Shown here one piece after another: positions 3,490 to 51,616 of a stretch of DNA of 64,000 bases. The translations under genes and the position numbers were made by a program. Under the pieces are notes generated by a model. That model was not told the DNA's origin and searched no databases. It saw only the letters and a program-made list of their open reading frames with translations. Each line of letters begins with the position of its first letter. Position 1 is the stretch's first letter. The DNA is from Nannocystis pusilla (GTDB lineage: Bacteria > Myxococcota_A > Polyangia > Nannocystales > Nannocystaceae): NCBI RefSeq assembly GCF_020073745.1, contig NZ_JAIRAU010000002.1, forward strand, positions 273,694 through 337,693. The letters are read 5' to 3'.

Positions 3490-3545
3490 TCGGCTCCTGG
3501 GGACATGTCCTCAGGAGCATGGCCCCGGACACCTGTCCGTGAGGT
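3490..3545. repeat. REP-like palindromes between convergent genes
   Basis: ggggacatgtcctcaggagcatggccccggacacctgtccgtgagg. Confidence 0.7.
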
Positions 3546-7054: not shown

Positions 7055-7596
7055 CCCGAGCTCCCCGAGCTGGTCGAGTCGGTGTCGCCGGTCGAACCGG
7101 TGGTGGTCGTCGTCGTCGAGCCGGACGAGGTCGAGCCGGTGGTGGTCGTGCTCGTGTCGGTGGTCGAGGTGGTGTCGTCGGTCGTCGTCGAGGTCGACGT
7201 GGTCGTCGTGTCGGTCGTGCCGGTCATCGACGAGGCGGTGGTGCCGTCGGTCGGGCCGCTGTCGCTCTCGCTGAGGCTGTTGCTGCCGGGGCCGGCGAGG
7301 TCGCGCTTCGACGGCAGGTCGTCGCGCACGGGCATCTCGTCGAGCGGCTCGCCGGCGGAGTCGGTGTCGATGCTCTCGGCGACGACGCACTGACCGATGA
7401 CGCCGGGCTTGAAGCAGGCGTCGCCGGCGAGGACCTTCTCGCCCTCGGCGTAGCACTCGAAGCCGGCTCCGCAGTCGCTGGCGCAGCGGCACGGATCGCC
7501 GGCCTTGGTGCGGCAGGCCGCGAGCGCGAACAGGGCGGCCAGCGCGACGCCGGTGGCGACGTCGTGCGGCCTGCGGCGCGGGCGAGGCGACCTCAT
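7051..7596 (-). CDS. Lipoprotein with a Cys-rich domain and a long Thr/Ser-rich C-terminal tail
   Basis: Lipobox LAALFALAAC. Cys-rich segment CRCASDCGAGFECYAEGEKVLAGDACFKPGVIGQC. Poly-T/S tail. 4-bp overlap with the HEPN gene. Confidence 0.6.
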   Translation of the reverse strand: MRSPRPRRRPHDVATGVALAALFALAACRTKAGDPCRCASDCGAGFECYAEGEKVLAGDACFKPGVIGQCVVAESIDTDSAGEPLDEMPVRDDLPSKRDLAGPGSNSLSESDSGPTDGTTASSMTGTTDTTTTSTSTTTDDTTSTTDTSTTTTGSTSSGSTTTTTTGSTGDTDSTSSGSSG

Positions 7597-8077
7597 GAGA
7601 TGGCCTTGTACTCGACGTGGACGACCTCGTATTCCCGGTCGCCCTTGGGCAGCTTGACCAGGACCTCGTCGCCGACCCGCTTGCCCAGCATGGCGCGGGC
7701 GATCGGGGCGCCGAGCGAGATCTTGCCCTTGTCGGCGTCGGACTCGTCCTCGCCGACGATCCGGTAGACGACCTTCTGGTCGTTCTCGACGTCGAGCATC
7801 GTCACGGTGGCGCCGAAGGTGACCTTGTCTTCCTTGACGGTCTCGGGGTCGATGACCTGGGCCATGCCGATGCGCGACTCGAGGTAGCGCATGCGGGCGT
7901 CGAGCTGGGCCTGGCGCTCCTTGGCGGCGTGGTACTCGGCGTTCTCACGCAGGTCGCCGTGGCCGAGCGCGGTCTCGATGTCGCGGACGTTCTCGGGGCG
8001 GTCGACTTCCTTGATCTGCTTGAGCTCGGCGCGCAGCTTGGCGTACCCCGCGGGGGTCATCGGGATCTTCTGCTCGG

Positions 8078-8081
<4 letters not shown>
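7593..8081 (-). CDS. greA: Transcription elongation factor GreA
   Basis: Full-length GreA-like sequence ([26 protein letters not shown]...EYKAIS). Sits next to carB, as in many bacteria. Confidence 0.9.
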
Positions 8082-11332
<3,251 letters not shown>

Positions 11333-14089: not shown

Positions 14090-14235
14090 ACGCGACCTCC
14101 GGGACAGGTGGCGAGGCGGGGCGCCGGTCGGGGCGCTGGTCAGTCCCGCGGGACATGTTCCAGGGGGCATGCGCATGAGGGCATGCCGGCATGAACATGC
14201 TCCCGCGGACAGGACCTTGGAGACATGCCCGAACG
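14090..14235. repeat. REP-like palindrome cluster between convergent genes
   Basis: gggacaggtgg...gggacatgttccagggggcatgcgcatgagggcatgccggcatgaacatgctcccgcggacagg...ggagacatgccc. Confidence 0.65.
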
Positions 14236-17703: not shown

Positions 17704-18173
17704 GGGCCAAGGCTAGTCCCGGGCGCGGCGAATTTCGAGGGCGCACGGGTCGCGGCGATCGCCGCATGGCACAGCTCGGGCCGGTGGACCGGCGAGTTCG
17801 CGTCGAGGACCGAGGCTCGCACGCGCCGCTGCGAGGGGTGATCTTCGTCTCGTCGGGCACAGCAGCGGGGACTCGCGCGCGAGTTCAGGAGATGCGGGTC
17901 GCGAACCGGAAGGCGCGCGGCGCCACGAGGGAGGATCGCGGCCGGCGACCGGCAGCGGGCGGGGGTGAGGGGGAGGCAATTGGAGACATGTCCTTTGGGT
18001 CATGCCGCGGCGAGGCGTGCATGTCGCCGGCGGCGAGATTCGGGGGCGCGCTTCGGTGCGACGCGCGGTCGCGGCCGGGAGCGCCGCTCAGAATTCGGCC
18101 GTTGGCGAGAATCGGGCAGTCTTTGGCATTCGCGCCACTTGTCGGCGCGGGGGGCAGGTGCGAGCGTGCGGGC

Positions 18174-19840: not shown

Positions 19841-19842
19841 AT

Positions 19843-19905
19843 CCGGAAGGACATGTCCGATCGGTCCGGCGCGAAGGGACATGCTCCGGGGGGCATGTCC
19901 CACGG
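19843..19905. repeat. REP-like palindromes between convergent genes
   Basis: aaggacatgtccgatcgg...gggacatgc-tccgggggg-gcatgtccc. Confidence 0.7.
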
Positions 19906-19916
19906 TTCAGGCCCCG

Positions 19917-21383
19917 TCAGAAGTTCACGTCGAGGTAGATGTTGGTGAGGAAGATGTTCTGCTTGTAGACGCCGTCGGCGCTGGCCTGCTTGGTGGGCGC
20001 CTGGAACTTGTTGAGGACGTTGCGGCCCTTGGTGTCGACCTTGAAGTAGGCGATGTCGGTGAAGGTCACGCCGAGGTGGAGCCGCTGGTGCAGGCGGAAC
20101 CGGCCGCCGAGCGAGAAGGTCATCTTGTGGGAGTCGAGCAGGGCGGGCTCGATGGTCTGCACGGGGACGGCGCTGCTGTCGAAGCCGACGCCGGCGTACA
20201 GCTCGACCGGGTCGACGACCCAGTAGCTGGCGCCGAAGCGCACGCCGCCGGCCGGCTTCCAGAAGCGCGGGATGTGCTGGGTGACGCCCTTGGTGCCGTC
20301 ACCCTCGGCGCCGAACTCCTCGGGCTTGGTGAGGGCCGTGTCGGCGCCGGCGAAGTCGCACTTGCGACCCTCGATGCTGGCGTCGAGGACGCACTGCTTG
20401 TCCATGACCTTCCAGTTGGTGAAGTCGCCGAACAGGCGCAGCTCGAGCTTGGGCACCGGGCGGACGCGGAAGCCGAGGCGGACGATGTCGGGGAGGCGCT
20501 GCGTGAGCTCGATCGGGGTCGCGTCGGAGACGGGCGCGACGCCGAAGGCGTTGGTGAGCTCGCCCTTGAGCGTCATGTTGCCGGTGATGTTGGGCCGGCT
20601 GGTGTACGAGGCGCCGATCCACAGCTTGTCGCGCCAGTTCCAGATCGCGCCGATGCCGAAGCTGCCCTGCCAGCCGGACGCCTTGAGCCAGCTGCGGCCC
20701 TCCTTGAGGGTGCCGTCGGACAGCACGAGGTCGTCGGTGCCGTCGGAGTTGCGGGCGCGGATGGTGTCGATCTCGCTGCGGATGGCGCTGCCCGACAGGC
20801 CGATCGAGAGGCCGATCTTGGCGATGTTGAAGGCGACGGCGCCGGTGATGTACATCGAGCGCAGCTTGCCGTCGATGGTGTGCCAGCGCTGCACGCCGTC
20901 GACCGCGCCCGGGTAGTCCTGGCTGCCGCGGTACTTGTCGTTGGGCTTCCACGTCGACTGGCCGCCGAACGGGAAGTAGACCGCGGCGCCGGCCGAGAAG
21001 AACTTGGTGCCGAAGTCCGAGCTGGCGCCGGCGAACGGGCCGGCGATGAAGTTGGACAGCTTGGCGGTGCCGGCGTTGGCGTCGGTGGCCCCCTCCGGCG
21101 TGCCGGTCATGCTGCTGATGGCCGACTCCGGCCGGTCGTAGCTGACCCAGCGGGCGGCGAAGCTGCCGTCGACGAAGATGCGTGTGCCGGGCTTCAGCGC
21201 GATACCCGCGGGGTTGTAGTAGATCGCGGTGGGGTTGTCCGTGGTCACGTGACCGTGCTCGCCGCCGAATCGCGCGGTGCTGAGGCCGGAGGCCCGGGCC
21301 TCGCGTGCGCCGAGCAGAGCGGCGGTCATCAGGCCACAGGCGAGGAGGGTGCGCGAGCGAGACGCATGGCGGGCGAGCGACAT
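19917..21383 (-). CDS. FadL/OmpP1/TodX-family outer-membrane transport protein
   Basis: Signal peptide. FadL-like N-terminal hatch motif LSTARFGGEHGHVTTDNPTAIYYNPAGIA. Terminal F (...NIYLDVNF). Confidence 0.8.
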   Translation of the reverse strand: MSLARHASRSRTLLACGLMTAALLGAREARASGLSTARFGGEHGHVTTDNPTAIYYNPAGIALKPGTRIFVDGSFAARWVSYDRPESAISSMTGTPEGATDANAGTAKLSNFIAGPFAGASSDFGTKFFSAGAAVYFPFGGQSTWKPNDKYRGSQDYPGAVDGVQRWHTIDGKLRSMYITGAVAFNIAKIGLSIGLSGSAIRSEIDTIRARNSDGTDDLVLSDGTLKEGRSWLKASGWQGSFGIGAIWNWRDKLWIGASYTSRPNITGNMTLKGELTNAFGVAPVSDATPIELTQRLPDIVRLGFRVRPVPKLELRLFGDFTNWKVMDKQCVLDASIEGRKCDFAGADTALTKPEEFGAEGDGTKGVTQHIPRFWKPAGGVRFGASYWVVDPVELYAGVGFDSSAVPVQTIEPALLDSHKMTFSLGGRFRLHQRLHLGVTFTDIAYFKVDTKGRNVLNKFQAPTKQASADGVYKQNIFLTNIYLDVNF

Positions 21384-22221: not shown

Positions 22222-23541
22222 ATGACAACGACGGTCTCGCCCCCCACGCCCGCCGGGCAGTGGTCCAAGGTCCGCAACGAGCTGCAGCAGCTGTGGCACA
22301 CCGAGCTGCGCGACTCCAACATCCGCACGGCGTACGTGGTGTGCGGGATGACCGGGACGGCGTACGGGATGGTGACGGCGGTCGTCGCGGTCTACCTGAA
22401 CAAGGTCCGCGGCATCGACGAGCTGACCATCGGCGAGCTGGCGATCTTCTTCTCGTTCGGCATCGCGGCGTTCAGCGTGCCGATGGGCATGCTGATCAAG
22501 AAGCTGTCGCCGCGGACGATGCTGTCGGTGGCGCTGCTCGTGTACGCGGCGGCGACGGCGATCTTCCCGTTCTTGCTCAGCTTCGGCGGCCTGGCGGCGG
22601 CGCGCGGCATCGACGGGGCGTTCTCGGTCGGCGTGTGGGTCAGCCTCGAGACGGTGCTGCTGATGCGGACGTCGACGGCGCACCGCGGGCTCATCACCAG
22701 CCTCTACACGATCTCGATGGCGACCGGCTACGGCATCGGCGCGGTGTTCGGCTGGGCGGTGATGCTGCTGTATCCGATGCAGATGGTGTTCGTGGCCGCG
22801 GGCCTGTTCGCCTCGTTGGCGGCGCTCATCGCCTACGTGTTCCTCGACCGCGAGATCCACCCGATCGCCGGCAGCGACCACGTCCACGAGGACGCGAGCC
22901 CGAAGCCGACGAACGCGGTCGAGGCCGGGCGGCCGCCGATCCTGTCGCTGTACTGGAAGATCAAGACGGCCTGCATCCCGACGTTCTGCTACGGCTACTT
23001 CCAGGCGTCCCTGGTGCTGTTCCTGCCGCTGTTCCTCATCGAGTCGCGCGCGGTGCCGAAGGAGGACACGAGCCTGCTGGTGGCGAGCTTCTCGATCGGG
23101 ATGGCGGCCAGCGTTGTGTTCGTCGGGCGGCTCGGCGATCGCTTCGGCCACCTGAAGACGGTGCGCACGCTGGTGGCGCTCGGGGTGGTGCTGACGGCGT
23201 CGCTGGTCTACCTGCCGACGTACGCGATGGTGGCGGTGGCGGTGCTGTTCGCGGGCGCCTCACTGGCGCCGATCTGGCCGATGAGCCTGGCGCTGCAGAG
23301 CCTCATCGTCGATCCCCGCGACTACAGCCGCAGCAACGCGCTGCTCAACGGGTCGTACGGGCTCGGCACGCTCGCGGGTCCGCTGGTGTCGGGCTACCTG
23401 TTCAAACACCACGGCGGCGAGACGATGTTCCTGCACATCGCGGTGCTGTGGGCGCTGGCGCTCCTGGCGACGCTGGCGTTCCGCCGCGACGATCCGAGCT
23501 TCCGCGCGCTCGCCCACGCGCGCGCCCGCGCGGCCGTGTGA
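22222..23541 (+). CDS. MFS transporter
   Basis: 12 predicted TM segments. MFS-like motifs (GMLIKKLSPR, loop RRDDPSFR). Confidence 0.85.
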   Translation: MTTTVSPPTPAGQWSKVRNELQQLWHTELRDSNIRTAYVVCGMTGTAYGMVTAVVAVYLNKVRGIDELTIGELAIFFSFGIAAFSVPMGMLIKKLSPRTMLSVALLVYAAATAIFPFLLSFGGLAAARGIDGAFSVGVWVSLETVLLMRTSTAHRGLITSLYTISMATGYGIGAVFGWAVMLLYPMQMVFVAAGLFASLAALIAYVFLDREIHPIAGSDHVHEDASPKPTNAVEAGRPPILSLYWKIKTACIPTFCYGYFQASLVLFLPLFLIESRAVPKEDTSLLVASFSIGMAASVVFVGRLGDRFGHLKTVRTLVALGVVLTASLVYLPTYAMVAVAVLFAGASLAPIWPMSLALQSLIVDPRDYSRSNALLNGSYGLGTLAGPLVSGYLFKHHGGETMFLHIAVLWALALLATLAFRRDDPSFRALAHARARAAV

Positions 23542-23588
23542 GGCGCGGCGGGGGCCTCGGCGCCGGGGCCCGGCGGCCCGCCGTTGTT

Positions 23589-24647
23589 ATGCTCGCGGGC
23601 ATGGGCCTGCTCCACCGCCTCTATGCCCGCGCCGCGCCCGAGGTCTGGGAGACCGAGACGCGCCTGCTGCACGCGCTCCGCCTGGTCCGCCGGCCGGTCG
23701 CGGTGCAGTGGATCGCCACCAACATGTGCGACCTCCGCTGCCCGCACTGTTACTCCGGCGCGGGCAAGCGGGCGGTCGGCGAGCTGACGACGCAGGAGGT
23801 GCTGCGCCTGGTGGTCGACGAGATGGTGGCGCTCGGCAAGCCGACCTTCGTGATCGCCGGCGGCGAGCTGCTGCTGCGCCAGGACATCGCCGAGATCGTC
23901 GCGTACGCGCGGGCGCAGGGGCTCGAGTGGGCCATGCACACGCACGGCGGACATGTCCCGAAGTTCAGGGCGATGTTCGAGCGCCACCCGCCGACGCTGG
24001 CGGCGATCAGCCTCGACGGCGAGCAGCGGCAGCACGACCTGTTCCGCGGGCGCCGCGGCAGCCACGCGGCCGCGCTGGCGGCGATCCGCACGCTGAAGGA
24101 GTGCGGCTGCCCGGAGGTGGTGGCGGGGACGACGGTGACGCGCGACAACGCCGACCGCCTGGCCGACCTGTTCCCGATCGTGGCGGCGTCGGGGGCCGAC
24201 TCGTGGGGGCTGCACCTGTTCGCGCCGGAGGGCCGCGGGGCGGAGCACACGGCGCTGTGCCCGACGCCCGAGCAGCTGCAGCGCGTGGCCGCGTTCGCCC
24301 GTCGCAAGCGCGAGCTGTTCCACGTCGAGCTGTGCAACGAGTGGGGCAGCGCGGGCGCCGACGATCGCTTCTACCGCGACCAGCCGTTCCTGTGCGGGGC
24401 GGGCCGGATCTCGTGCGTGATCGGGGCGACCGGGGAGGTGCTGCCGTGCACGACCACCGACCTGCGCGAGTCGGAGGGCAACCTGCGCGAGCGACCGCTG
24501 CGCGACATCTGGACCCGCGGGTTCACGCGCTTCCGCACCGCGGGGCCGCGCGAGTGCTCCGACGGGCGCGAGTGCTGGCTGCAGGCCCGCAACGGCAACC
24601 CGTGCCGCGAGCAGGCGTTCGGCGCCTGTCGCAAGGAGGCCGTGTGA
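23589..24647 (+). CDS. Radical SAM enzyme with C-terminal SPASM domain (likely peptide/protein-modifying maturase)
   Basis: CxxxCxxC cluster NMCDLRCPHCY. SPASM cysteines CGAGRISCVIGATGEVLPC ... CSDGRECWLQARNGNPCREQAFGAC. Confidence 0.85.
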   Translation: MLAGMGLLHRLYARAAPEVWETETRLLHALRLVRRPVAVQWIATNMCDLRCPHCYSGAGKRAVGELTTQEVLRLVVDEMVALGKPTFVIAGGELLLRQDIAEIVAYARAQGLEWAMHTHGGHVPKFRAMFERHPPTLAAISLDGEQRQHDLFRGRRGSHAAALAAIRTLKECGCPEVVAGTTVTRDNADRLADLFPIVAASGADSWGLHLFAPEGRGAEHTALCPTPEQLQRVAAFARRKRELFHVELCNEWGSAGADDRFYRDQPFLCGAGRISCVIGATGEVLPCTTTDLRESEGNLRERPLRDIWTRGFTRFRTAGPRECSDGRECWLQARNGNPCREQAFGACRKEAV

Positions 24648-25990: not shown

Positions 25991-26050
25991 TTGAATGGAC
26001 ATGTCGTCGGCGACATGTTCTACCGGGCATGTCCTAAGCGACATGCCCGT
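25983..26050. repeat. Cluster of GGACATGTCC-family palindromes (REP-like) between convergent gene ends
   Basis: gacatgtgattgaatggacatgtcgtcggcgacatgttctaccgggcatgtcctaagcgacatgcccgtgagg. Confidence 0.7.
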
Positions 26051-27152: not shown

Positions 27153-28349
27153 TCAGCCGGCGTCGACGACCACGCGGATCTCCGCCGCGGCCGCTTCGGC
27201 GCGCGCGCGGCACTCGGCGATGTCGTCGCCGTAGGCCAGCACCACGCCCATGCGCCGGTACTTGCGCGTGTCGGGCTTGCTGAACAGACGGACCTTGTTG
27301 CGCGGGTGGGACAGCGCCTTGACGACGCCGGTGAAGCGCGGGTTGGTGCCTGGCCGATCGGCCAGGATCACGGCGGAGGCCCCGGGCGCGCGGAGGATGA
27401 CCTGTCCGATCGGCAAGCCCAGGATCGCGCGGACGTGCAGCTCGAACTCGCTCTGATCCTGCGTGATCATGGTGACCATGCCGGTGTCGTGCGGGCGCGG
27501 GCTGACCTCGCTGAAGATGACGTCGTCGCCGACGATGAACAGCTCGACGCCGAACAGACCGGCGCCGCCGAGCGCCTCGGTCACGGCGGCGGCGATCTCC
27601 TGGGCGCGCGCGAGGGCCTTCGGCGCCATCGGGTGCGGCTGCCACGACTCCATGTAATCGCCGCGCTCCTGCCGGTGGCCGATCGGCGGGCAGAACAGGG
27701 TGCCCTCGCGGCGGGTGCGGATCGTCAGCAGCGTGATCTCGTAGTCGAACGGGACGAAGCCCTCGACGATGACGCGGGCCGAGCGGCCGCGGGCGCCCGA
27801 CAGCGCGTACTCCCACGCGGTCGCGACCTCGGCGGCGGTGCGGACGGTGCTCTGTCCCTTGCCGGAGCTCGACATGACGGGCTTGAGCACGCACGGCAGG
27901 CCGAGGCGCTGCACGGCGGCCTCGACCTCCTCGAGGGTGTCGGCGAAGGCGTAGGGGCTGGTCGGCAGTCCGAGCTGCTCGGCGGCGAGGCGGCGGATGC
28001 CCTCGCGATCCATGGTGAGTCGGGTGGCGCGGGCGGTGGGAATGACGGTCCAGCCCTCGCTCTCGAGCTCGACCAGCGCGTCGGTGGCGATGGCCTCGAT
28101 CTCGGGGACGATGTAGTGCGGCTGCTCGCGGGCGACGACGGCTCGCACGGCGTCGCGGTCCTGCATGTCGAACACGTGGCTGCGGTGGGCGACCTGCATC
28201 GCCGGGGCGTTGGCGTAGCGATCGCAGGCGACGACCTCGACGCCGAGGCGTATGGCCTCGATAGCGACCTCGCGGCCGAGTTCGCCGGATCCGAGCAGGA
28301 GCAGCCGCGTGGACGAGGGGGACAGTGGAGTGCCGAGCGTGAGATCCAT
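27153..28349 (-). CDS. purT: Formate-dependent phosphoribosylglycinamide formyltransferase
   Basis: [22 protein letters not shown] and an ATP-grasp core. Typical PurT length (~398 aa). Confidence 0.9.
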
Positions 28350-28578
28350 GGCGAGCGCGCGCAGGATAGTGGCGCACTGTCGCGCGCGGCAAGGCGGGCG
28401 CCGCGGGCGCGAGGTCACACTCGTCGGCCGGGCCGCGTAGACGCGGGTGGGCGCGGGCGCGGGGCTCACGCCGGTCGGAGTGCGGTGTTCACGCCGGTCG
28501 GCGCGCGGTGGTTCGCGCCGAGCACGGTCGATGGTGAGGGCCCGTCGCTCGGCGGCGTGGCCCGAAGGCGGGGTGCGT

Positions 28579-31500
28579 TCAGGTCCCGACGGGTTCGTGT
28601 CGGGCGCTGCCGTTGTACATGGCGCTCCACTGCGCGGGGCGGCGGATGGCCTGCGAGGCGAGGAACTGATCGGCCTGGGCGATCAGCTGGGCGCCGCCGG
28701 GGCCCATCAACTCGCCGCGGCGACGGCGGGCGCAGGCGGCGTGGATCCGCATGTCGGCGGTGTCGAAGCTGGCGGCGGCCGCCTCGAGGCGGACGAGCGC
28801 CTGCGGGATGTCGTTGTTCTGCGCGGCGATGCCGGCGCGGATCAGCGCGGCCATGGCGACCGAGTCGTAGCGCAGCGCGCGGTCCTCCTCGAGCTGGGCG
28901 GCGTCGCGTTCGGCGGCGGCGAGCAGGACGCCGGCGTTGTGCGGCTGCTCGCGCGCGGCCGCGATGGCGGCGAGGGCCCGCGCGTGGAGGAAGACGATCC
29001 GCTGGCCCTGCCAGCCGAGGATGTACGAGTTCTCGACGGCGACCCAGTTCTCGGCCAGTCGCTGCCACGCGGCGCCGCCTTGCCCCTGGTACAGGTCGCA
29101 GAAGGTCTCGAGCACGAGCGCGAGCATGTGCTGGAAGTGGAAGCCGTCGCGGGTCCAGCGGCGCATGGTGTTGCGGACGCGGTCGCGGGCGCTGTGGATG
29201 TCGTCGGCGCTGAGCAGCCCGTAGGCGCTGTAGAGCGACGACCAGACCTCGCCGCACAGGTCGCCGGTCTCCTCGGCCTCGCGCAGCCAGGCGTGGGCGC
29301 GGCCGCCGAGCTCGGCGAGCTCGCCGAGCATGTACAGCGCGCGCATCGAGCTCATGCGCGAGACGTCGAGCTCCCAGCCGACGCCGACGCAGCGGTCGAG
29401 GAGGATCTGGGCGCCTTGCTCGTTGCGCTCGAGCGCGCGCCGCCAGCGGCCGAGCGAGACGTCGGAGAGGCCGTCGATGATCTCGCACAGGCCGAGCAGG
29501 CGCGGGTCCGACAGCTGCTCGGCCAGCCGGCGCGCCTCCTTCAACAGGGTGGTGCCGCGGCCGACGGCGTTGGCGGTGCCGCGGCTGACGACCATCGCGC
29601 CGACGCCGGCGAGGGCGCGGGCGATCCGCTGCGGTTCACCTGTCTGAAGGGCCAGGAGCAGCCCGCGCTGGAAGAAGCTGTAGCCGCGGATCGGATCGAC
29701 GAAGGCGAGGCCGACGGCGGCCGACAGGCACACGTCGAGGCGCAGCAGGTCGGCCGGCGGGACCTGGTCCTCGCGCACGCTGACGAAGTTGAGCCCGCGC
29801 AGGCTGAGCTGGGTCGAACGTGTAATGATGGACATGTTCGCCCGGCCAGGTGTGGCGGGGTAGCCGAGGTCGACCTCGACCAGCGCGGGCCGCAGCAGCC
29901 GGATGCCCTGGTCGATGTTGCCGCTGACGAGGAACTGCTCGCCGGCGCGGCGGCGCAGCTCGAGCGACTCGGCCGGGGCGGCGCCCTCGGCCGCGCTGGC
30001 GTAGACGGGGGCGGCGGCGGCGCTGCGCCCGGCCTGGGCGAGCGCGTCGGCGCGGCGGCGCAGCAGGGCCCGGCGCTCGTCGTCGGGCAGATCGGAGGCC
30101 CACGCGAGGGCGCGCTCGTAGAGCTGGGCGGCGCGGTGGAACGCGAGCGCGGCCGCGGCCCGCTCGGCGGCGGCGACGGCGGCGGCGAAGGCCTCCTGGA
30201 GGGCGCCGGCGGCGTGCAGGTGATGCGCGAGCAGCTCGGGGTCGTCGGCGGACTGGGCGAGCGCGTCGGCGAGGGTGCGGTGCAGCCGAGCCAGGTGATC
30301 GGCGCCGAGCTGGGCCAGCACGGTGTCGCGGATCCGGTCGTGATAGCACTCGACCGTGTCGCCGCCGCGGGTGGCCAGCGTGCGCAGCAGGTGCTGCGCC
30401 TGCAGCTCGCCGAGGATGGAGCGATCGGTGACGCCCGAGGCGGAGAAGGCGAGGTTGGCGGGGATCGGCCGCCCGGCGACGGCGACGATCTCGAGCAGGC
30501 GACGACCCGCGGCGCGCAGGCCGGCGAGGCGCGTGCGCACGACGGCGTCGAGCGAGACCTCGGGCGGGGCGGCGCCGCGGTGACCGGCGACGTGACGCGC
30601 GAGCTCCTCGACGAACAGCGGGTTGCCGCCCGACTCGGCGGCGATCCGGCGCGCGTCGGCGCGGGTGCCGTCGGTGTCGCGGCCGAGGCGGGCCAGCGCG
30701 AGCTCCTCGGCCTGCTCGGCCGACAGCGGCTCGACCAGCAGATCGCGGACCAGCGCCTTGAGCTCGGGCCGCGCGCCGAGGCGCCGGAGCTCGCGCAGCA
30801 TCGGCGCGTCGTCCTCGTCGATCCGGTACGAGCCGATGAACAACAGCGCCGGCGGATCGGGCGGCGACAACAGCTCGGCCAACAGGCGCGCGCTGTCCTC
30901 GTCGCCCCACTGCAAGTCGGCGATCCGCAGGACCAGGGGGCGGCGATCGGCGATCCGCGCCAGCAGCTCCTTGAGCCCGCGGAAGGCCCGCCGCCGGGCC
31001 TCCTGCGGGTCGGGGGCGGCGAAGTTGCGCTGCGGCAGATCGGCGACCACGGCGGCGCGCGCGAGCACGGGGAACAGCCGGGTGAGCTCGTGGATCTCGC
31101 GCGGCAGCAGGGCCGCGGCCTCCTCGGCGGGCAGGTGCCGCAGGTGCTGCGCGAGCGCGTCGAGGACGCTGTCGAAGGCCTTGTACGGCACGCTCTCGCG
31201 CTCGAAGCAGCGGCCCTGGAGGACGAAGGCGCGGTCGGTGCGGCGCAGCTCGGCGATGAAGCGATCGATGAGGGCGGTCTTGCCGATGCCGGAGCGGCCG
31301 CGGACGTACACGCACACCGGCGAGCCGGCGAGCGCGAGCTGGAACGCGTCGCGCATGGCCGACAGGAGATCGTCGCGGCCGACGAAGCGGGCGCCGCTCT
31401 CGGCCGGGCCGAGCGGGGCCTCGCCGAGCGCCTCACGGATGTCGGCCCCGCCGAGCCGCGTCGCCGGGTCGCGCCGCAACAGGCCCATGCAAAGGGTCGA

Positions 31501-33444
31501 CAGCGCCGGATCGACGGCGGGCGCGAGCTGCTCCGGCGGGGCCGGATCGTCGTGCTGCTTGGCGTGGAGGATCAGCAGCGGCGGGCCGGTGAAGGGCAGG
31601 CGGCCGGTGAGCGCCTCGTAGAGCATGACGCCGACGGCGTACCAGTCGCTCGCGGGCGTGGCGGGGTTGCCGGCGGCCTGCTCCGGCGCCATCGTCGCCG
31701 GGGTGCCGAGCAGGCCGTCCTCGCCGCCCTCGGCGACGTCGTCGGCGGCGAGGCCGAAGTCGAGGATCGCGACGCGGCCCTCGGGCGTGACGAGCACGTT
31801 CGACGACTTGAGGTCGCGGTGCAGCTTGCCGGCGGCGTGCAGGGCGCTGACGCCGGCCGCCAGCTGCAGCAGGGCCGGCCGCAGCCGCTCGTGCAGCCGG
31901 CCGGCGTCGCGCGCGTCTGGCTCTTCGGACATGTCCTGACGGACATAATCGACGAAGCTGACGCCGTCGACGAACTCCATGGTGATGAACCACTCGTCGG
32001 CGTGCGAGACCAGCTGGTAGAGGCTGACGAGGTTGGGGTGCGACAGGCCGGCGGCGCTGCGGAACTCGTTCTTGAGGCGGAACAGCGCGCCGGGGTCGAG
32101 CTTGTGCAGGGTCTTGAGCGCGAGGGTGCGGCCGCTGTCGCGGTCGACGGCGGCGTAGACGACGCCCATGCTGCCCGAGCCGACCCGACGCACCAGCTCG
32201 TAGCGGCCGAGGGGACGCGGAAGGATGTCCTCAGGGACAGGTAGCGTCGCCGGCAGCGAAGCGCGGGCCTGGGGCTCGTCGGAGTTCAAGGGAGCGAGCG
32301 GATTATGCCACGCGGGCCGGCCCGCGGTCGCTTCGGCGGGCAGCGCCCCCGGCGGGACGCCGAGGCCGGGGCCGCGGGGCCGCGGCAGTTCGGGCGCGAG
32401 CCGGTCCTGGCTGCCCGGCGGCATGGGGTCGTCCAGCGTGAGCATGTGGGCGTCGAGGTCGGCCTCGTCGGCGAGACGGGACAGGGCGCTGGCGGCGGCG
32501 AGCCCGACGCGGGTCTCGATCATGCAGCCGAGGAGCACGCGCAGGCCCTCCCGCCGGGCCGCGGCGATCATCGCCAGCGCGGGCGAGATCCCGCCGCACT
32601 TCATCAACTTGATGTTGACGCCGGCGACGGCGCCCGCGAGGGCGATCACGTCGTCCGGCCCCTGCACGTCCTCGTCGGCGTAGATCGGGATGGGTGAGTC
32701 GCGCGCGAGCGCCGCGAGCAGGTCGGGCCGCCCCGCAGGCAGCGGCTGCTCGAGCTGCTCGACCCCGAGGTCGACCAGCAGGGGGATGAGCGCGCGGGCG
32801 TCCTCCGGGGTCCAGCCGCCGTTGGCGTCGACCCGCAGGCGGGCCCGCGGGGCCGCGGCCGCGACCGCACGCACCGCCGCGCGGTCGAACTCACGGGCGC
32901 GCCCGAGCTTGATCTTGAGCACCGGCAAGTGCGCGGCCGCGGCCGCCCGGGCGGCCATCGCCGGCAGCTCGTCGAGCGCGATCGTGTACGAGGTCACGGC
33001 CGCCCCCGATGTGGCCAAAAGGACATGACCGTCGACACCTGCCCGATCGAGCACGTCGGGGTCGGCCAGCCAGTCGGCGAGCGGCAGATCCCGGGCCCGC
33101 GCGGCGGCGTCCCACAGCGCGGTGTCGACGGCGCAGCGGGCCGCGGAGTGGGCCGGGGCGAGCTCGCGCATGCGCGCGCCAGCGGCCGTGATCGCGCGCG
33201 GGTCGCCGAGGATCGCCGGATCGAGCTCGGCGGCGATGGCGACGGCCAGCGGGGCCGCCGCCGGCGCCGACTGCCCGAGGTAGCGCACCGGGGCGGCCTC
33301 GCCGAGGCCGCGGCGCTCGCGACCGTCCGGCGATCCCGGGGGTTCGAGGCGCACCAGCAGGCTCGGCAGTTCGCTCACGGTCCCGCGCGACAGACCGAAC
33401 GGGTGGCGCAGGCGAAGCGTGACGAGGGCGGCGCGCAGGTCCAT
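28579..33444 (-). CDS. 1621-aa ORF: N-terminal enolase-superfamily dipeptide-epimerase-like domain fused in frame to a Ser/Thr protein kinase, AAA/NB-ARC-like ATPase and TPR region
   Basis: Epimerase motifs (KIKLG, DANGGW, EQP, YADE, KLMKCGG, C-terminal PGLGV) occupy about 33444-32346. The kinase G-loop [21 protein letters not shown] and APE come next. Then a Walker A GRSGIGKT and long helical repeats. No in-frame stop lies between the domains. Confidence 0.6.
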
Positions 33445-33493
33445 GGACTCCCCGGTGTACCACCGCCGAGGCGCCATTGTATCGTGACGGCGC

Positions 33494-35008
33494 ATGCCCA
33501 GTCGCCGCCCCGGAGGCTCGTCCCCCAGCGTCGCGCTCGATCGGCTGTTCGACCGCGATTCGCCGCTCTCGTACGAGGAGCGGCTCGAGGCCCTGATCTC
33601 GGCGGCGCTGCCCGACCAGGTGCCGCGGCTGTCGTTCGGCGCCGAGCTGGCCCGCGGCGGCATGGGCTCGGTGAGGCTCGCGTTCGACGAGGTGCTGCAG
33701 CGGCGGATGGCCGCCAAGACCATGCACGCGCGGACCTACGAGCACCTGATCCTCGTGCACGGGTTCCTGCGCGAGGCCCAGGTCACCGGCCAGCTCGACC
33801 ACCCCAACATCGTGCCGATCCACGAGCTCGGCCGCGACGAGCAGGGCCAGGTCTACTTCACGATGAAGCTGGTCGAGGGCCAGAGCCTGAAGGCCATGAT
33901 CGCCGGCGAGGCGGCGACCGACCACGAGCGCCTGGTCCACCGGCTCGAGATCTTCGTCAAGGTGTGCGACGCGCTGTCGTTCGCCCACAGCCGCGGGGTG
34001 ATCCACTGCGACCTCAAGTCGGCGAACGTGATGGTCGGCGCGTACGGCCAGGTCTACCTGATGGACTGGGGCGGGGCGCAGCTGCTGCCCCTTCGGCCAG
34101 GTGCCGACGAGAGCCAGTGGGTCCGCGACGCCCTGCCGCCGCTGCCGCCGTCGGAGACCGACGGGCTGGTGTTCGGCACGCCGTCGTACATGTCGCCGGA
34201 GCAGGCGATGAGCCATTCGCTCGACGAGCGCTCCGACGTGTTCTCGATGGGCGCGCTGCTGTACGAGGTGATGACCGGCAAGCCGCCCTACCAGGCCAAG
34301 ACGGCGATGGACGCGCTGCTACTGGCGCAGCAGGGCAACATCGCGCCGCCCGACTCGCACGTGGCGGTGCCGTTCCCGCGCGAGCTGGTCCGCATCGTCA
34401 TGAAGGCGCTGCGCCGCGACCCCGACGACCGCTACGCCAGCGTGGCGGCGCTCCAGCAGGACATCGTCCGCCTGCTGCGCGGCAGCGGCAGCTTCCAGAC
34501 GGTCCGCTTCGCCGCCGGCGACCACGTCATCCGCGAGGGCGAGATCGGCGACGCGGCCTACATCGTGCTGGGCGGCCGGCTCGAGGTCTACAAGCTCGAG
34601 GGCGGGCACCACGTGTCGCTGCGCTGGCTCGGGCCCGGCGACGTGTTCGGCGAGACTTCGATCTTCGCCGCGTCGCGCCGGACCGCCAGCGTGCTGGTGG
34701 TCGAGGAGGCGACGCTGACGAAGATCACCAGCGACCTGATCGAGGAGGAGCTGACGTCGATGAAGCCGTGGATGGGGGCGTTCGTGCGCACGCTCGCGGC
34801 CCGCTTCGCCGGCATCGAGAGCCGCAGCGCCAGGATGCCGCTGCTGGCCGATCGCCCGTCCGCGCCGCCCCCGCCGCGCAGCGCCCCGCCGAGCGCGGCG
34901 CCGACGTCGTCGGGCGGCGAGAGCGTGATCATCGACATCGACGAGCCGCTCGACGAGCAACACGCGGCCAGCGACACGCACGTGACGCTGCTGGCGCGCC
35001 GCGAGTGA
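33494..35008 (+). CDS. Ser/Thr protein kinase with C-terminal cyclic-nucleotide-binding domain
   Basis: Kinase motifs (GMGSVRLA, HCDLKSAN, DWG, SPEQ). cNMP-binding motif (FGETSIFAASRRTASVLVVEEATL). Confidence 0.85.
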   Translation: MPSRRPGGSSPSVALDRLFDRDSPLSYEERLEALISAALPDQVPRLSFGAELARGGMGSVRLAFDEVLQRRMAAKTMHARTYEHLILVHGFLREAQVTGQLDHPNIVPIHELGRDEQGQVYFTMKLVEGQSLKAMIAGEAATDHERLVHRLEIFVKVCDALSFAHSRGVIHCDLKSANVMVGAYGQVYLMDWGGAQLLPLRPGADESQWVRDALPPLPPSETDGLVFGTPSYMSPEQAMSHSLDERSDVFSMGALLYEVMTGKPPYQAKTAMDALLLAQQGNIAPPDSHVAVPFPRELVRIVMKALRRDPDDRYASVAALQQDIVRLLRGSGSFQTVRFAAGDHVIREGEIGDAAYIVLGGRLEVYKLEGGHHVSLRWLGPGDVFGETSIFAASRRTASVLVVEEATLTKITSDLIEEELTSMKPWMGAFVRTLAARFAGIESRSARMPLLADRPSAPPPPRSAPPSAAPTSSGGESVIIDIDEPLDEQHAASDTHVTLLARRE

Positions 35009-35026
35009 GCGCCGGTCATGGCCCAT

Positions 35027-35062
35027 GGGACATGCCCGGAAGGGCATGTCCCGGAGGTCATG
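35027..35062. repeat. Extended palindrome GGGACATGCCC-ggaa-GGGCATGTCCC (REP-like) between convergent kinase and cyclase genes
   Basis: gggacatgcccggaagggcatgtcccggaggtcatggg. Confidence 0.75.
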
Positions 35063-35077
35063 GGATCGAGCCGCCGC

Positions 35078-36304
35078 TCACGCCCGCAGCGGCAGGCCCT
35101 CGAGCAGCTCCGTGAGCGCGCGGGGCAGGGCGGTGAAGCGGACGACCACGCGGCCGGCGGTCGAGGCGACGACCTTGGCGTAGGCGTCGACGCCGGGCAG
35201 GGCGGCCAGCACGAGCTTGAGATCGGAGCGCAGGGGCACGACGGTCGTGACGTGCAGCTCGGCGTTGTGCAGGTCGTCGTACGCGACCAGCACGGCGGGG
35301 TTCTCCTGGCCGCCGGTGTCCTTGCCCTCGAGCGCGGTGAAGCTGAGCCGCTGCGGCTCGGCCAGGGCGCGCCACTGGGATGTCTCTTCGGCCATGTGAA
35401 TGGCGAACGGGCCGTCGACGCCGGTGACGTCGTGGATCGTGATCGGCTCGCGCACGCCCTTGGGCCGGACCTCGAAGCTGCCGCGGGTGCGCAGGCGGTC
35501 GCCGAGGGCCTCGGCGGCCGACCCGGAGATCAGGACCTGGCCGCCGACGGTGTAGCTCTCGATCCGCGAGGTGAGGTTGACGTGGCGGCCGACCACGCCG
35601 TACTTGGCGCGCCGGTTGGAGCCGATGTTGCCGACCACGACCTCGCCGGTGTGGACGCCGATGCCCATCTCGAGCGCGGGCAGGCCGTGCTCGGCCAGCT
35701 CGGCGTTGACGCGACCCATGGCCCGCTGCATGGCGATCGCGCAGGCGACCGCGCGCTCGGGGTGGTCCTCCTGCGGCACCGGGGCGCCGAACACGGCGAG
35801 GATGGCGTCGCCGATGAACTCGTTGATCGAGCCGCGGTACTCGCCGATGACGTCGGCCATGGCGCCGAGGTAGATGTTGAGGATCGCCACCACCTGCTCG
35901 GGGCCCAGCCCCTCGCACAGGGTCGAGAAGCCGCGCAGGTCGGAGATCAGGATCGTCAGCGTGCGCCGCTCGCCGCCGAGCTGGCGGCCCTCGGGCGAGG
36001 CCAGCAGGGTGTTGACGACCTCGTCGGTGACGTGGCGGCCGAACACCTGGCGGATGAAGGCGTTGCGCAGCTCGAGCTCGACCACCAGCGCCTCGACCTG
36101 CTCGATCTTGACGGCGAGCTGCTCCTCGATCTCGTTGGCGTGCTCGAGCGTGGAGTCGTGCAGCATCACGAGGTCGTCGTGCTCGGCCTGCAGCGCGGCG
36201 GCGGCGGCCACGAACTCGGCGCGCGCGGCCGCGTCGGCCAGGAGCGTGGCCGCGGCCTCGGGGTCGGCGAGCAGCTGCCGCCAGCGCGGGTCTTCCGGGA
36301 GCAT
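35078..36304 (-). CDS. Class III adenylate/guanylate cyclase (CHD domain) with N-terminal helical region
   Basis: CHD motifs TILISDLRGFSTL, FIGDAILAVFGAP and GIGVHTGEVVVGNIG. Confidence 0.85.
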   Translation of the reverse strand: MLPEDPRWRQLLADPEAAATLLADAAARAEFVAAAAALQAEHDDLVMLHDSTLEHANEIEEQLAVKIEQVEALVVELELRNAFIRQVFGRHVTDEVVNTLLASPEGRQLGGERRTLTILISDLRGFSTLCEGLGPEQVVAILNIYLGAMADVIGEYRGSINEFIGDAILAVFGAPVPQEDHPERAVACAIAMQRAMGRVNAELAEHGLPALEMGIGVHTGEVVVGNIGSNRRAKYGVVGRHVNLTSRIESYTVGGQVLISGSAAEALGDRLRTRGSFEVRPKGVREPITIHDVTGVDGPFAIHMAEETSQWRALAEPQRLSFTALEGKDTGGQENPAVLVAYDDLHNAELHVTTVVPLRSDLKLVLAALPGVDAYAKVVASTAGRVVVRFTALPRALTELLEGLPLRA

Positions 36305-36317
36305 GCGGGCGGCGCCG

Positions 36318-36692
36318 TCAATCGAGCGCGATGACGATGGGCGGCAGGAACTTCTTGAGGTTGGGCAGCGACTTGCCCTGCCACGGGATGGTCGACGAGC
36401 CGTGGACCTTGATCTCGGTGTCGCCCTTCTTGCGCGCGGCGATGGCGAACTTGTAGAGCATGTTGATGCCCGAGCTGTTGAGGAACGCCAGCTCGGTCAT
36501 GCGCAGGCCGAGCGCGGGGCTCTCGAGGAGGACGCGGTCGAGCATGTCCTCGATCGGCTTGTACTCGCTGGTGCTGAGGCGGAGGACGCCCTCGAAGTGG
36601 ATCGTGCGCGAGGGCGCGTCGAACCACACGCGATAGCCGGGGCCTTTGATGTCGGTGTCAGACCCGGAGGGTCGCGAAGTTGTATCCGTCAT
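36318..36692 (-). CDS. SiaC-like (DUF1987) partner-switch protein
   Basis: 124 aa. LAFLNSSGINMLYKFAI aligns with the SiaC core (LYLNTSSIKAMMDIL). 4-bp overlap with the upstream kinase gene. Confidence 0.6.
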   Translation of the reverse strand: MTDTTSRPSGSDTDIKGPGYRVWFDAPSRTIHFEGVLRLSTSEYKPIEDMLDRVLLESPALGLRMTELAFLNSSGINMLYKFAIAARKKGDTEIKVHGSSTIPWQGKSLPNLKKFLPPIVIALD

Positions 36693-37252
36693 GGGGATTT
36701 CACCTGTAGCCGGGCGGTGGTCTTGAGGAGCGCGTTGTCAGGATTGCCAGGCGCGGGGTCGAAGCGCCAGCCGAGCCGGGCCTTGTAGTCCGACAGCATG
36801 GTGAGAAATCCCAGGCCCGAGGTCGTCAGTTCGGGGTTGGCGGCGTTCTCCTCGACGCGCTGCATCAGGAGCTCCGCGGGATCGCCGTCGAGCAGCTCGG
36901 CGAACTTGACGCGCAGCCCGTCGACCGCGGCGCCGACGATCTGGTTGCTGACGACCACCACGAACTCGCCGGCCTCGACCCCGGCGTCGATCACGACGGT
37001 GCCGCCGGCGCAGAACTTGACCGCGTTCTCGATCAGCTCGTTGAGCACGTAGCCGACGCTGCCGACGAAGTCGCGCCGCTCGGCCTCCTCGACGAGCCCG
37101 CTGGCGCCGACGTCGGCGAAGTACTCGGCGAAGAAGTCGGCCGCCACGCTGCACTGGTTCCACTTCACCGGGAACGCCCCGGGGTAGAACACGAGCGTGA
37201 CGCGCGGTCCAGCGTCCGTGGGCTCCCTGTACTCGCCGATGATGCCGTCCAT
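36689..37252 (-). CDS. SiaB-like anti-sigma-factor-type GHKL Ser/Thr kinase
   Basis: N-box LNELIENAVKF, typical of the RsbW/SpoIIAB/SiaB kinase fold. 187 aa. GGAG RBS. Confidence 0.6.
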   Translation of the reverse strand: MDGIIGEYREPTDAGPRVTLVFYPGAFPVKWNQCSVAADFFAEYFADVGASGLVEEAERRDFVGSVGYVLNELIENAVKFCAGGTVVIDAGVEAGEFVVVVSNQIVGAAVDGLRVKFAELLDGDPAELLMQRVEENAANPELTTSGLGFLTMLSDYKARLGWRFDPAPGNPDNALLKTTARLQVKSP

Positions 37253-37275
37253 ACTCTCCGTCCGCCTCGGGCGCC

Positions 37276-39636
37276 TCAGCGCCGCTTGATCACCACCGTC
37301 GTGATGTCGTCGAAGACCTTCTGCGCGCCGATGAAGCGCATGACGTCGTCGATGATCGCCTGCTTGATCTCGGCCGCCGTCCGCTCGTGCACGCGGCGCA
37401 CCGCCTCGCACAGGCGCTCGATCCCGTACTGCTCGCCGTGGATGTCCTCCGCCTCGGTAATGCCGTCAGTGTACAGGACGACGACGTCGCCCGGCGACAG
37501 CCGCAGCTCGGTGTGGGCGATGAACGTGGCGATGTCGACCTCGAGCCCGACCGGCATGCCGAGGTCGACGGTGTCGATGCGCTCGATCGAGCCGCCCCGC
37601 CGCACGACCACGGCCTCCTCGTGCTGCCCCGTGAGGCGGAGCACCCCCTGCGAGTAGTCGAGCAGGACCAGGGTGGCGGTGCGGTCGAGACCGACGCGCT
37701 GGATGTTCTGGTAGAGGACCTTGTTGACGATGTTGAGGAAGCGCTCCGCGTCGCGCTCCTCCGCGGCCTGCAGGGTGCGCACCGCCGTCTGGATCATCAG
37801 CATCAAGACGCCGCTCTCGAGGCCGTGCCCGGTGACGTCGCCGATGCCGATCTTGACGCCGCCGGCGTGGCGCAGGACGTCGTAGTAGTCGCCGCCGACC
37901 TCGTCGGCCGGGCGCATGTAGCCGGCGACCTCGAGGCCGTCGAGCTCGGCCAGCTCGCGGTCGGGCGGCAGGACCATCAGCTGCAAGCGCCGGGCGACGT
38001 CGAGCTCGGCGCCGAGCCGCAGGTTCTCCTGCTTGAGCCGCTCGTTCAGCGCCATGATCTCGCGGCTGGCCCGCTGCAGCTCGGCGGTCCGCTGTTCGAC
38101 CAGGCTCTCGAGGTTGTGCGTATACGCGCGGATCTCCGCGGCCATCTGGTTGAAGGCGCGGCCGAGCGCGCCGAACTCGTCGCTGCTGCGCACGTCGACG
38201 CGCACGTCGTAGTCCTTCTGCGCGATCTTGCCGGCGCCGGCGGCGAGGTCGGACAGCGCGCTGGTCATGCGCCGCGAGACCAGGAAGATCCCGAGCATCA
38301 CCACCGCGAGCGCCACCAGCGTGATGACGATCTGGCTGGTGAGGATCCCGCGGCTGCTGGCGGCGATGGTGGCCTGGGCGTTGATCAGCGAGCTGTAGAT
38401 CTCGGCGGCCGGGACGACGAAGCCCAGCGTCCACCGCTCGGGCTTGATGTCGGCCGAGCCCGACCAGGCGTTGAACGGCTCGAGCCGCTTGAGCACGACG
38501 ACGTAGTCCTGGCCGCCGATCGCTACCGGGTCGCGGTAATCGACGGCGTCGCCGCTCGGCAGCGCGAGGGCGCGGATCGCCGGGTCGCGCGATTGATGGA
38601 GGAACTGCTGGAAGATGTCGACGCCGGCGCCCGACGAGCCGCTGATCTGCTGCAGGCCGAGGATGTCCTTGCCGTCGTCGTTGACGGCGAACACGTTGCC
38701 GTTCTCCTGGGCGAGGAAGGCGAAGCCCGAGCTGGCGAGCTGCAGGTCCTGGACGTGGCGGATCAATTGACTGAGCGTGACGTCGACGCCGACGGCCCCG
38801 GCGAACCGCGTGCGCGAGACGTCCCACAGCGGCTGGAACAGGGTCATGATGGCCCCGCTGCCGCCCGCGTCGGTGTACGGCGAGGTGCCGGTGACCTGCG
38901 CGGCGGGGTCGCGCATGCGCGCGGGGTCGCCGATCCAGCGCTGCCAGCCCTCGACGATGCCGGGGAAGTAGAAGCTCCAGAACGGGCTGGCGTTGTGCCC
39001 GGGGTACTGCTTGTCGGCGTGGCCGGCCGCGTCGGCCCACGGCGCGATCCGCAGGTACTCGGCGCCCGCGGGGCCGATGAAGTACATGGCCTGCTTCTCG
39101 GCCCCGTGCTGGAGGAGCGGCGGCAGCAGCAGGTCGAGCAGGGCGGTGCGCTCGACGGCGGCCCGGACCTCGGGCTTGATGTCCCGAAGGCCAGGTTTGT
39201 TCGGGTCGGCCGGGGCGTGCAGGTAGCCCCACACGGCGACCGCCGAGGGCTCGCCTTCAGCGGTCTGCGACCAGTCGCCGGCCGGGTCGTAGACCAGGGC
39301 GTCGCGCAGCGGCGAGGTCGTGGCTGCGGCGGCGGTCAGCGGCGCGAGCGCGTCCTGCTGGTCGATCAAGGTCTGGGCGACGGCCGCGAGCACGCCGAGC
39401 TCGGCGCGCGCGCGGCCGTGGTAGAACTCGACCCGCCGCGCGGTGTCCTCGATGTGATTGGTGAGGTACTCGCGACTGGCGCGCTCGAGGCCGTTGCGGA
39501 TCTCGTCGGAGGCGTCGCCGCCGAGCGAGCGGATGCCCTGCAGCGAGGCCAGCGCGGCGAGCGTCAGGCCGATCACCAGCCCGACCCCGGCGACGAGGAC
39601 GAACTTGGTGCGGAACCTGGAGCCCGTGATGGCCAT
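37276..39636 (-). CDS. Membrane sensor phosphatase with periplasmic domain, HAMP and PP2C (SpoIIE-like) domains; SiaA-like
   Basis: TM1 FVLVAGVGLVIGLTLAALASL. ~500-aa periplasmic region. TM2 IVITLVALAVVMLGIFLV. HAMP. PP2C motifs GDYYD, GDVTGHG and LYTDGITE. Confidence 0.8.
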   Translation of the reverse strand: MAITGSRFRTKFVLVAGVGLVIGLTLAALASLQGIRSLGGDASDEIRNGLERASREYLTNHIEDTARRVEFYHGRARAELGVLAAVAQTLIDQQDALAPLTAAAATTSPLRDALVYDPAGDWSQTAEGEPSAVAVWGYLHAPADPNKPGLRDIKPEVRAAVERTALLDLLLPPLLQHGAEKQAMYFIGPAGAEYLRIAPWADAAGHADKQYPGHNASPFWSFYFPGIVEGWQRWIGDPARMRDPAAQVTGTSPYTDAGGSGAIMTLFQPLWDVSRTRFAGAVGVDVTLSQLIRHVQDLQLASSGFAFLAQENGNVFAVNDDGKDILGLQQISGSSGAGVDIFQQFLHQSRDPAIRALALPSGDAVDYRDPVAIGGQDYVVVLKRLEPFNAWSGSADIKPERWTLGFVVPAAEIYSSLINAQATIAASSRGILTSQIVITLVALAVVMLGIFLVSRRMTSALSDLAAGAGKIAQKDYDVRVDVRSSDEFGALGRAFNQMAAEIRAYTHNLESLVEQRTAELQRASREIMALNERLKQENLRLGAELDVARRLQLMVLPPDRELAELDGLEVAGYMRPADEVGGDYYDVLRHAGGVKIGIGDVTGHGLESGVLMLMIQTAVRTLQAAEERDAERFLNIVNKVLYQNIQRVGLDRTATLVLLDYSQGVLRLTGQHEEAVVVRRGGSIERIDTVDLGMPVGLEVDIATFIAHTELRLSPGDVVVLYTDGITEAEDIHGEQYGIERLCEAVRRVHERTAAEIKQAIIDDVMRFIGAQKVFDDITTVVIKRR

Positions 39637-51591: not shown

Positions 51592-51616
51592 GCGGTCGTC
51601 TGTTCGCCTGGCCTGG

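Follow-up and report, generated by a model that had tools for sequence, protein, structure and literature searches.

A frameshift close to a stop codon is a well-known route by which adjacent genes become fused, and it is also a common annotation artefact in genomes of high G+C content. In dipeptide epimerases, a DxD motif after the last barrel strand binds the ammonium group of the dipeptide. Among STAND proteins, the PknK-like arrangement belongs to the MalT branch (PMC4381067). We analysed a 64,000-nucleotide stretch of DNA from an assembly labelled Nannocystis pusilla (GCF_020073745.1, contig NZ_JAIRAU010000002.1, positions 273,694 to 337,693; hereafter the window), in which one uninterrupted minus-strand reading frame joins a dipeptide-epimerase-like sequence to a PknK-like Ser/Thr kinase. 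Surveys of domain architecture would tally the product (WP_224190840.1) as a new epimerase-kinase combination; a single missing base accounts for this 1621-amino-acid protein. The comparison shows that the base is missing from this sequence, that its absence is the derived state and that the two genes are separate in every relative examined. On the sequences compared, the fusion appears unique to this one Nannocystis assembly and is best read as a frameshift peculiar to this strain or as an error of sequencing, and not as an evolved sensor architecture. The main value of the analysis is the correction of the RefSeq entry by comparative evidence.

An uninterrupted epimerase-kinase reading frame

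A mechanical list of open reading frames contains a stop-free minus-strand frame at 28579..33723. Translated from the ATG at 33444, which matches the MDLR start shared by all epimerase orthologues, the frame is continuous over 33444..28579 and yields 1621 amino acids, as a preliminary description of this DNA had reported when it saw no stop between the domains. Pfam places MR_MLE_N at residues 11-125, MR_MLE_C at 163-363, Pkinase at 415-668 and AAA_16 at 686-870, which bears out the earlier reading of dipeptide-epimerase-like, Ser/Thr kinase and AAA domains in one frame. The motifs quoted at the time (KIKLG, DANGGW, EQP, YADE, KLMKCGG, PGLGV and the kinase G-loop) are all found in the translation, with the G-loop following PGLGV after 50 residues, not about 45. 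G+C content across the fused region is 70-80%, and long stop-free frames are therefore cheap here.

The exact protein is public (MBZ5709063.1 / WP_224190840.1) under the label N. pusilla, encoded on a contig of 364,603 nt. This species label looks inconsistent with other N. pusilla: the window DNA is 97.5% identical to that of N. radixulma NCELM, and the window epimerase shares 95% identity with its counterparts in N. radixulma and N. sp. SCPEA4, compared with only ~84-85% for the epimerases of N. punicea, N. exedens and the other N. pusilla genomes.

One missing base at the junction

The junction is made up of the following elements.

32303..33444, minus strand: ancestral dipeptide-epimerase-like gene (enolase superfamily, MLE subgroup), recognized from Pfam, solved relatives and orthologues
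32330..32331, minus strand: site of the one-base deletion, located by DNA alignments, where the window reads GAAG directly followed by CGAC
32290..32302, minus strand: former 13-nt intergenic spacer TCCGCTCGCTCCC, now linker-coding, from the alignment
28579..32289, minus strand: native gene of a PknK-like STAND Ser/Thr kinase of 1236 amino acids, with its TTG start at 32289-32287 and its stop at 28581-28579

We aligned the DNA of six sequences, namely the window, N. radixulma, N. sp. SCPEA4, a JGI metagenome contig, N. bainbridge and a metagenome-assembled genome (MAG) from ENA at 76% identity. At 32331/32330 the three closest relatives read GAAGGCGAC and the window reads GAAGCGAC; each of the five relatives carries GGC at the point where the window is reduced to GC. 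The missing G sits 25 nt upstream of the epimerase TAA and is the only difference at the junction between the window and the aligned relatives. Its absence shifts the last nine epimerase codons: all eight orthologous epimerases end in RVA followed by the stop, and the window sequence departs from them right after PAE. The block CGCGTGGCATAATCC, encoding Arg-Val-Ala-stop, is invariant in all six aligned sequences, the window included, and the ancestral TAA is still intact at 32305-32303, merely out of frame (read as ..CAT AAT..), so the stop was not lost, as had been proposed for the route to fusion. Between TAA and TTG, the same 13-nt non-coding spacer occurs in N. radixulma and N. sp. SCPEA4. 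The kinase start TTGAA is conserved among the aligned relatives, with GTGAA in the ENA MAG, the most distant of the five, and the TTG that the preliminary description had considered near 32289 is indeed present as this conserved native start.

The fused frame could have arisen as follows. Loss of one G at 32331/32330 would merge co-oriented, probably co-transcribed epimerase and kinase genes: a ribosome on the epimerase would read 14 novel residues, pass the out-of-frame TAA and the 13-nt spacer in a shifted frame that has no stop because stops are rare at 75% G+C, and join the kinase frame exactly at the kinase TTG, there read as Leu. The predicted product has 1621 amino acids, with both parts intact.

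As a separate observation, the 15-nt block CGCGTGGCATAATCC spanning the epimerase stop (32297-32311, minus strand) has changed less than the coding sequence on either side, staying invariant down to 76% protein identity, and resembles an extended -10 box (TGnCATAAT). The idea that the conserved TGGCATAAT at the stop might be such a box was dropped for lack of support; a consensus promoter scan was empty there. A scan of 32150-33600 for sigma-70 promoters and intrinsic terminators gave no matches, a result that speaks neither for nor against an internal kinase promoter.

Separate genes in every relative and no second fusion

Epimerase and kinase are separate genes in 10 of 10 related loci compared as DNA, among them N. 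radixulma, N. sp. SCPEA4, the JGI metagenome contig, N. bainbridge, the ENA MAG and four that are more distant. The five aligned loci share one layout, in which the epimerase ends in RVA-TAA and 13-14 nt later the kinase begins at its own start codon. The alignment with N. radixulma extends over window positions 28576-39450 (10.9 kb) at 97.5% DNA identity; in that genome the epimerase open reading frame ends at 7143 and a TTG-start kinase frame of 1236 amino acids occupies 7157..10867. N. bainbridge has a 384-amino-acid epimerase ending in TAA, followed after 14 nt by a 1228-amino-acid TTG-start kinase in a different frame. Source annotations of about 12 Nannocystis genomes likewise list separate epimerases of 380 or 384 amino acids and kinases of 1228 or 1236 (unfused in N. 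exedens, four other N. pusilla, ILAH1, RBIL2, SCPEA4, N. radixulma, N. punicea and N. bainbridge). When genome contigs were scanned, N. radixulma was the sole close relative among the matches listed, and the other Nannocystis loci were reached through protein look-ups.

The preliminary description had offered two accounts, one in which formerly separate genes were fused through loss of the stop, the other an undetected frameshift or sequencing error. Unfused genes in every relative examined, the outcome of the orthologue comparison it had envisaged, together with the one-base deletion, uphold the separate origin and the frameshift; stop loss falls away.

It had also raised the idea of an unusual sensor architecture. 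An evolved functional fusion, in which a STAND kinase had recruited a small-molecule epimerase domain for sensing or input, would fit the apparent completeness of both parts and their intact catalytic motifs in the fused frame; the two genes are, moreover, a conserved neighbouring pair across the clade, which makes a functional link plausible and would make the fusion a Rosetta-stone-type event. We nevertheless consider it very improbable, as the fusion is confined to a single assembly, the genes are separate in the closest relatives (95-97% identity) and the linker is a frameshifted tail plus spacer. The linker carries no sign of later change, since its relic TAA, spacer and TTG are the same as in N. 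radixulma and N. sp. SCPEA4.

Protein searches returned no other protein combining MR_MLE and Pkinase. Against 5.8 billion proteins, the best 120 matches to the full-length query reached at most 77% coverage and none carried MR_MLE; with the first 485 residues as query, the best 120 of 709 proteins were all 292-446 amino acids long, at a coverage of at most 78%, the closest coming from Nannocystis. A phmmer search with residues 1-680 against 1.84 billion cluster representatives, which should rank any two-domain protein at the top, placed single-domain or multi-kinase proteins there and no epimerase-kinase protein. Eight phmmer candidates with an internal kinase domain were all tandem-kinase proteins without MR_MLE. 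With no second example in 5.8 and 1.84 billion proteins, the sensor architecture finds no backing, and across the ten loci, the roughly 12 genomes and the protein searches, neither orthologues nor independent lineages display a conserved epimerase-kinase architecture.

A real deletion or a consensus error

The missing G is the sole coding-sequence indel in 10.9 kb compared with N. radixulma, the remaining indels falling in the intergenic repeat array at 35017-35074 and two further non-coding stretches. A GC-frame screen of the 64-kb window returned three same-strand frame switches worth checking. Two were rejected as frameshifts because Pfam showed normal gene boundaries (a DJ-1/PfpI gene followed by a DJ-1-AraC regulator at ~18850, and a radical-SAM/SPASM gene and its neighbour at ~23540/24600); the third, at ~7235, has no Pfam match. 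One coding indel and two of three frame switches at normal boundaries suggest that the consensus is not indel-prone, which favours a real mutation.

On present evidence we lean towards a genuine, very recent, strain-specific one-base deletion that merged two ordinary genes. Such a deletion would most likely be neutral or mildly deleterious, lying in the C-terminal tail of the epimerase, which is under weak constraint; the last ten epimerase codons are poorly conserved and are where a real frameshift would be tolerated. We infer that the organism itself, and not just its assembly, carries the deletion, that it produces the fusion protein and that the kinase is still able to start independently at its TTG.

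Several observations weigh against a real deletion. An exact-pattern scan of metagenome contigs for the junction found neither allele, an exact look-up of the fused and TTG-start products on contigs found no independent assembly of the strain, and the sources of the fused protein are NCBI-derived only. Loss of G from GG in DNA of 75% G+C is also plausible as a consensus error, and other Nannocystis assemblies are damaged at the same locus, with a 964-amino-acid kinase fragment and a 289-amino-acid epimerase.

A sequencing or assembly error would mean that the organism has GAAGGCGAC, a 380-amino-acid epimerase and a separate 1236-amino-acid kinase, the fusion being confined to the consensus and its automatic annotation. 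We rate this as quite possible, if short of probable. Only one base differs, within a GG dinucleotide of very G+C-rich DNA; N. radixulma and SCPEA4 match the rest of the junction exactly, TAA and TTG being intact; and of about 13 Nannocystis assemblies just this one shows the fusion. One of the assemblies of the genus with broken genes at this locus is that of N. pusilla Na p29T, a Nanopore/Flye assembly (PMC10435759). Set against these points are the lack of other coding indels in the 10.9 kb shared with N. radixulma and of convincing frame breaks elsewhere in the window, where two of the three candidate switches are normal gene boundaries; real frameshifts between strains at ~2.5% divergence are, besides, not rare, and the C-terminal tail of a gene tolerates them best. 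If the deletion is real, the locus would be a natural example of operon neighbours fusing in high-G+C genomes. Programmed frameshifting in the relatives was also considered and found no supporting evidence.

The epimerase and kinase parts

The epimerase gene has 380 amino acids in the closest relatives. It matches MR_MLE_N (PF02746, E = 6.9e-10) and MR_MLE_C (PF13378, E = 1.2e-34), and a PDB sequence search aligned it over its full length to solved dipeptide epimerases (3IJI, 3.6e-38; YcjG 1JPD, 1.7e-30; YkfB 1JPM). K177-I-K179, the metal ligands D206, E232 and D257, and K279/K282 do not vary across the aligned orthologues and match the motifs of 3IJI; the enolase-superfamily ligands on which the preliminary description had staked its assignment are thus all present. 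The DxD motif is D329-L-D331, where EADLDAH aligns to FADLDGN of 3IJI, and both aspartates are invariant among orthologues. The nearest NCBIfam models are the N-acetyl-D-Glu racemase DgcA (195 bits, equivalog cut-off 400) and the YcjG-type L-Ala-D/L-Glu epimerase (126 bits, cut-off 343), both scores lying below the level of identity to a characterized epimerase. By these features the epimerase part is a member of the MLE subgroup of the enolase superfamily and dipeptide-epimerase-like.

The kinase gene divides into three regions.

about 31441-32202, minus strand: kinase domain (Pfam Pkinase)
about 30835-31389, minus strand: AAA_16 NTPase (Pfam AAA_16)
28582-30834, minus strand: helical C-terminal region of ~750 amino acids, with no family assigned

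Pkinase is matched at E = 1.7e-41 over profile positions 1-256 of 263, and the Hanks motifs (G-loop, VAIK Lys, HRD..N catalytic loop, DFG and APE) can all be read in the translation. C-terminal to it, AAA_16 (E = 1.7e-23) has the Walker A motif GRSGIGKT, in line with a NOD-type P-loop NTPase placed behind the effector domain. Pfam assigned no family to the last 740 amino acids, and the TPR label that they had been given earlier finds no match; a PDB sequence search with the C-terminal 952 amino acids found no match to any solved structure. Kinase orthologues are 1228-1343 amino acids long and all begin at a homologous M-(N/K)-x-D-(E/D)-P-Q N terminus, down to ~58% identity, and several homologues, P0153 and P0215 among them, bear the NCBI name PknK. 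We classify the kinase part as a probable PknK-like STAND-type kinase of the MalT type.

A conserved gene pair in a changing neighbourhood

The epimerase gene is followed by a separate kinase gene in 10 of 11 loci of a Nannocystaceae-like clade, despite changes in both flanks. The spacing between the two genes varies across the loci.

Loci L002 (N. radixulma), L090 and L091: spacer of 13 nt
Loci L001 (N. bainbridge) and L085: spacer of 14 nt
Loci L083/L084: spacer of 24 nt
Locus L082: spacer of 111 nt
Locus L089: spacer of 117 nt
Locus L087: spacer of 427 nt

The pair is absent at L088, a locus at 53% identity, and from 79 more distant epimerase loci. Within the genus Nannocystis it is flanked by a cNMP-binding kinase and PurT; more distant members of the clade have an amino-acid permease upstream of it and differing genes downstream. 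The immediate neighbours in the window are as follows.

27153..28469, minus strand: PurT-type ATP-grasp enzyme, downstream of the pair (Pfam ATP-grasp, PurT_C)
33494..35008, plus strand: Ser/Thr kinase with a cNMP-binding domain, divergent and upstream of the pair (Pfam Pkinase, cNMP_binding)

The divergent cNMP-kinase arrangement also occurs in L001, L085, L090 and L091, and the PurT gene lies downstream of the pair only in loci of the genus. We considered the ATP-grasp gene as a dipeptide ligase partner and rejected it, because it is PurT and does not adjoin the pair outside the genus. A radical-SAM/SPASM gene a few kilobases downstream of the kinase and PurT (22260-24647 in the window) is conserved in N. 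bainbridge (14695-15155 in L001).

Retention of the pair while its flanks change suggests an operon-level functional link between epimerase and kinase within the clade. We infer that the substrate of the epimerase may be a small peptide or an N-acyl amino acid with some relation to what the STAND kinase senses. A broader proposal would treat the pair as a module, in which the epimerase makes or removes a D-amino-acid-containing dipeptide or N-acyl amino acid, derived for example from cell-wall or prey peptidoglycan, that is sensed by the kinase C terminus, and would take the window as a genuine, fresh Rosetta-stone fusion of the two; we give this joint proposal an outside chance. The conserved pairing itself offers a testable hint about the small molecule sensed by orphan STAND kinases.

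The junction palindrome and a family of repeat arrays

The preliminary description had placed a palindrome in the linker and, in one of its two accounts, took it for an intergenic element turned linker.

32226..32239: the junction palindrome TGTCC-TCAG-GGACA, a 5-bp inverted repeat in kinase codons 17-22 (PVPEDI)

The whole site lies at 32223-32241, one base away from the 32224-32242 first given. It is inside the native kinase coding sequence, outside the 13-nt spacer, and exactly the same nucleotides occur in N. radixulma and N. bainbridge, both of which have unfused genes. A palindrome within the kinase gene and present in unfused relatives can have had no part in the fusion, and the notion of a converted intergenic element is abandoned.

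Its membership of the palindrome family holds in part. The core TGTCC-N4-GGACA, found in 11 exact copies in the window compared with 0.05 expected, is the inter-unit core of the family, and the junction site shares it. The site lacks the marks of an array, which are at least two units, a 10-12 bp hairpin and a position at gene 3' ends: it forms a 5-bp stem only, a repeat search at seed 6 reports nothing there, and a count by eye gives 6 mismatches in 16 positions to the consensus of the double unit, GGNCATGNCC-N4-GGNCATGNCC. A search for the double-unit GGNCATGNCC pattern with up to three mismatches does not recover the site.

The family itself is strongly enriched in the window. GGACATGTCC occurs at 26 sites with at most one mismatch (1.9 expected), and 10-nt GGNCATGNCC units recur at a strict 14-nt period in arrays of 2-6, giving 36 double units where 0.62 are expected.

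14151-14230, 19849-19914, 25997-26048, 35014-35065 and 51604-51683: larger GGNCATGNCC arrays (core GGACATGTCC), mostly between convergent gene 3' ends
3501-3524, 17984-18007 and 48480-48503: further GGNCATGNCC arrays

The larger arrays, lying between gene 3' ends, support the earlier remark that the GGACATGTCC family marks gene ends. Neighbouring units are mutually complementary, and four of five arrays folded form very stable 10-12 bp hairpins with z scores of -4.1 to -5.6 (both strands were folded for 35005-35080); the fifth, at 19840-19920, reached only z = -1.4. Rfam found no family in the whole window. Nannocystis loci are enriched in such elements (3-5 per 10 kb), and 818 kb of loci belonging to other phyla contained none. 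The arrays look like a genus-specific repetitive extragenic palindrome (REP)-like or bidirectional-terminator element. The array at 35017-35074, between the cNMP-kinase and guanylate-cyclase genes, is an indel hot spot relative to N. radixulma, with eight of the nine gap openings in 10.9 kb, which suggests that arrays evolve by unit-scale rearrangement.

Double-unit matches to the family also occur inside coding sequences, at 31927-31950 in the kinase (codons ..VRQDMS..) and at 33007-33044 in the epimerase, the latter within a ~15-residue insertion of the Nannocystis enzyme relative to 3IJI. Matches at corresponding positions are present in L001, L002, L085 and L090 for the kinase and in L002, L090 and L091 for the epimerase; these may reflect codon-usage chance or an element domesticated in frame. 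Other tandem repeats in the window comprise a 263-nt unit at 57834-58622 (3.0 copies, 94% matches), each copy with a GGCTGTCC-N4-GGACATGTCC site, a 32/65-nt unit at 6337-6510 (5.4 or 2.7 copies, 92-93% matches) and a GGC-rich 27-nt unit at 62919-63106 (~7 copies).

Comparison with known systems

The biology underneath the fusion is a known kind of epimerase beside a known kind of STAND kinase. Like the dipeptide epimerases 3IJI (Bacteroides thetaiotaomicron), 1JPD (Escherichia coli YcjG) and 1JPM/1TKK (Bacillus subtilis YkfB), the window epimerase has the two-domain MR_MLE signature, with KxK, the D/E/D ligands, the second-lysine motif KLMKCGG and DxD. It is set apart from 3IJI by its ~15-residue insertion, and, in this assembly only, by the lack of an in-frame stop codon of its own. 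The kinase resembles Mycobacterium tuberculosis PknK, a STAND protein of the MalT clade (PMC4381067), in having an N-terminal Hanks kinase, then an AAA_16 NTPase and a long helical C terminus; it is placed by this domain order, its C-terminal 952 amino acids being without a solved-structure match. As in generic read-through fusions, a single-base indel just upstream of a stop meets a next gene that happens to be in frame; unlike in those, both partners in the window remain fully intact.

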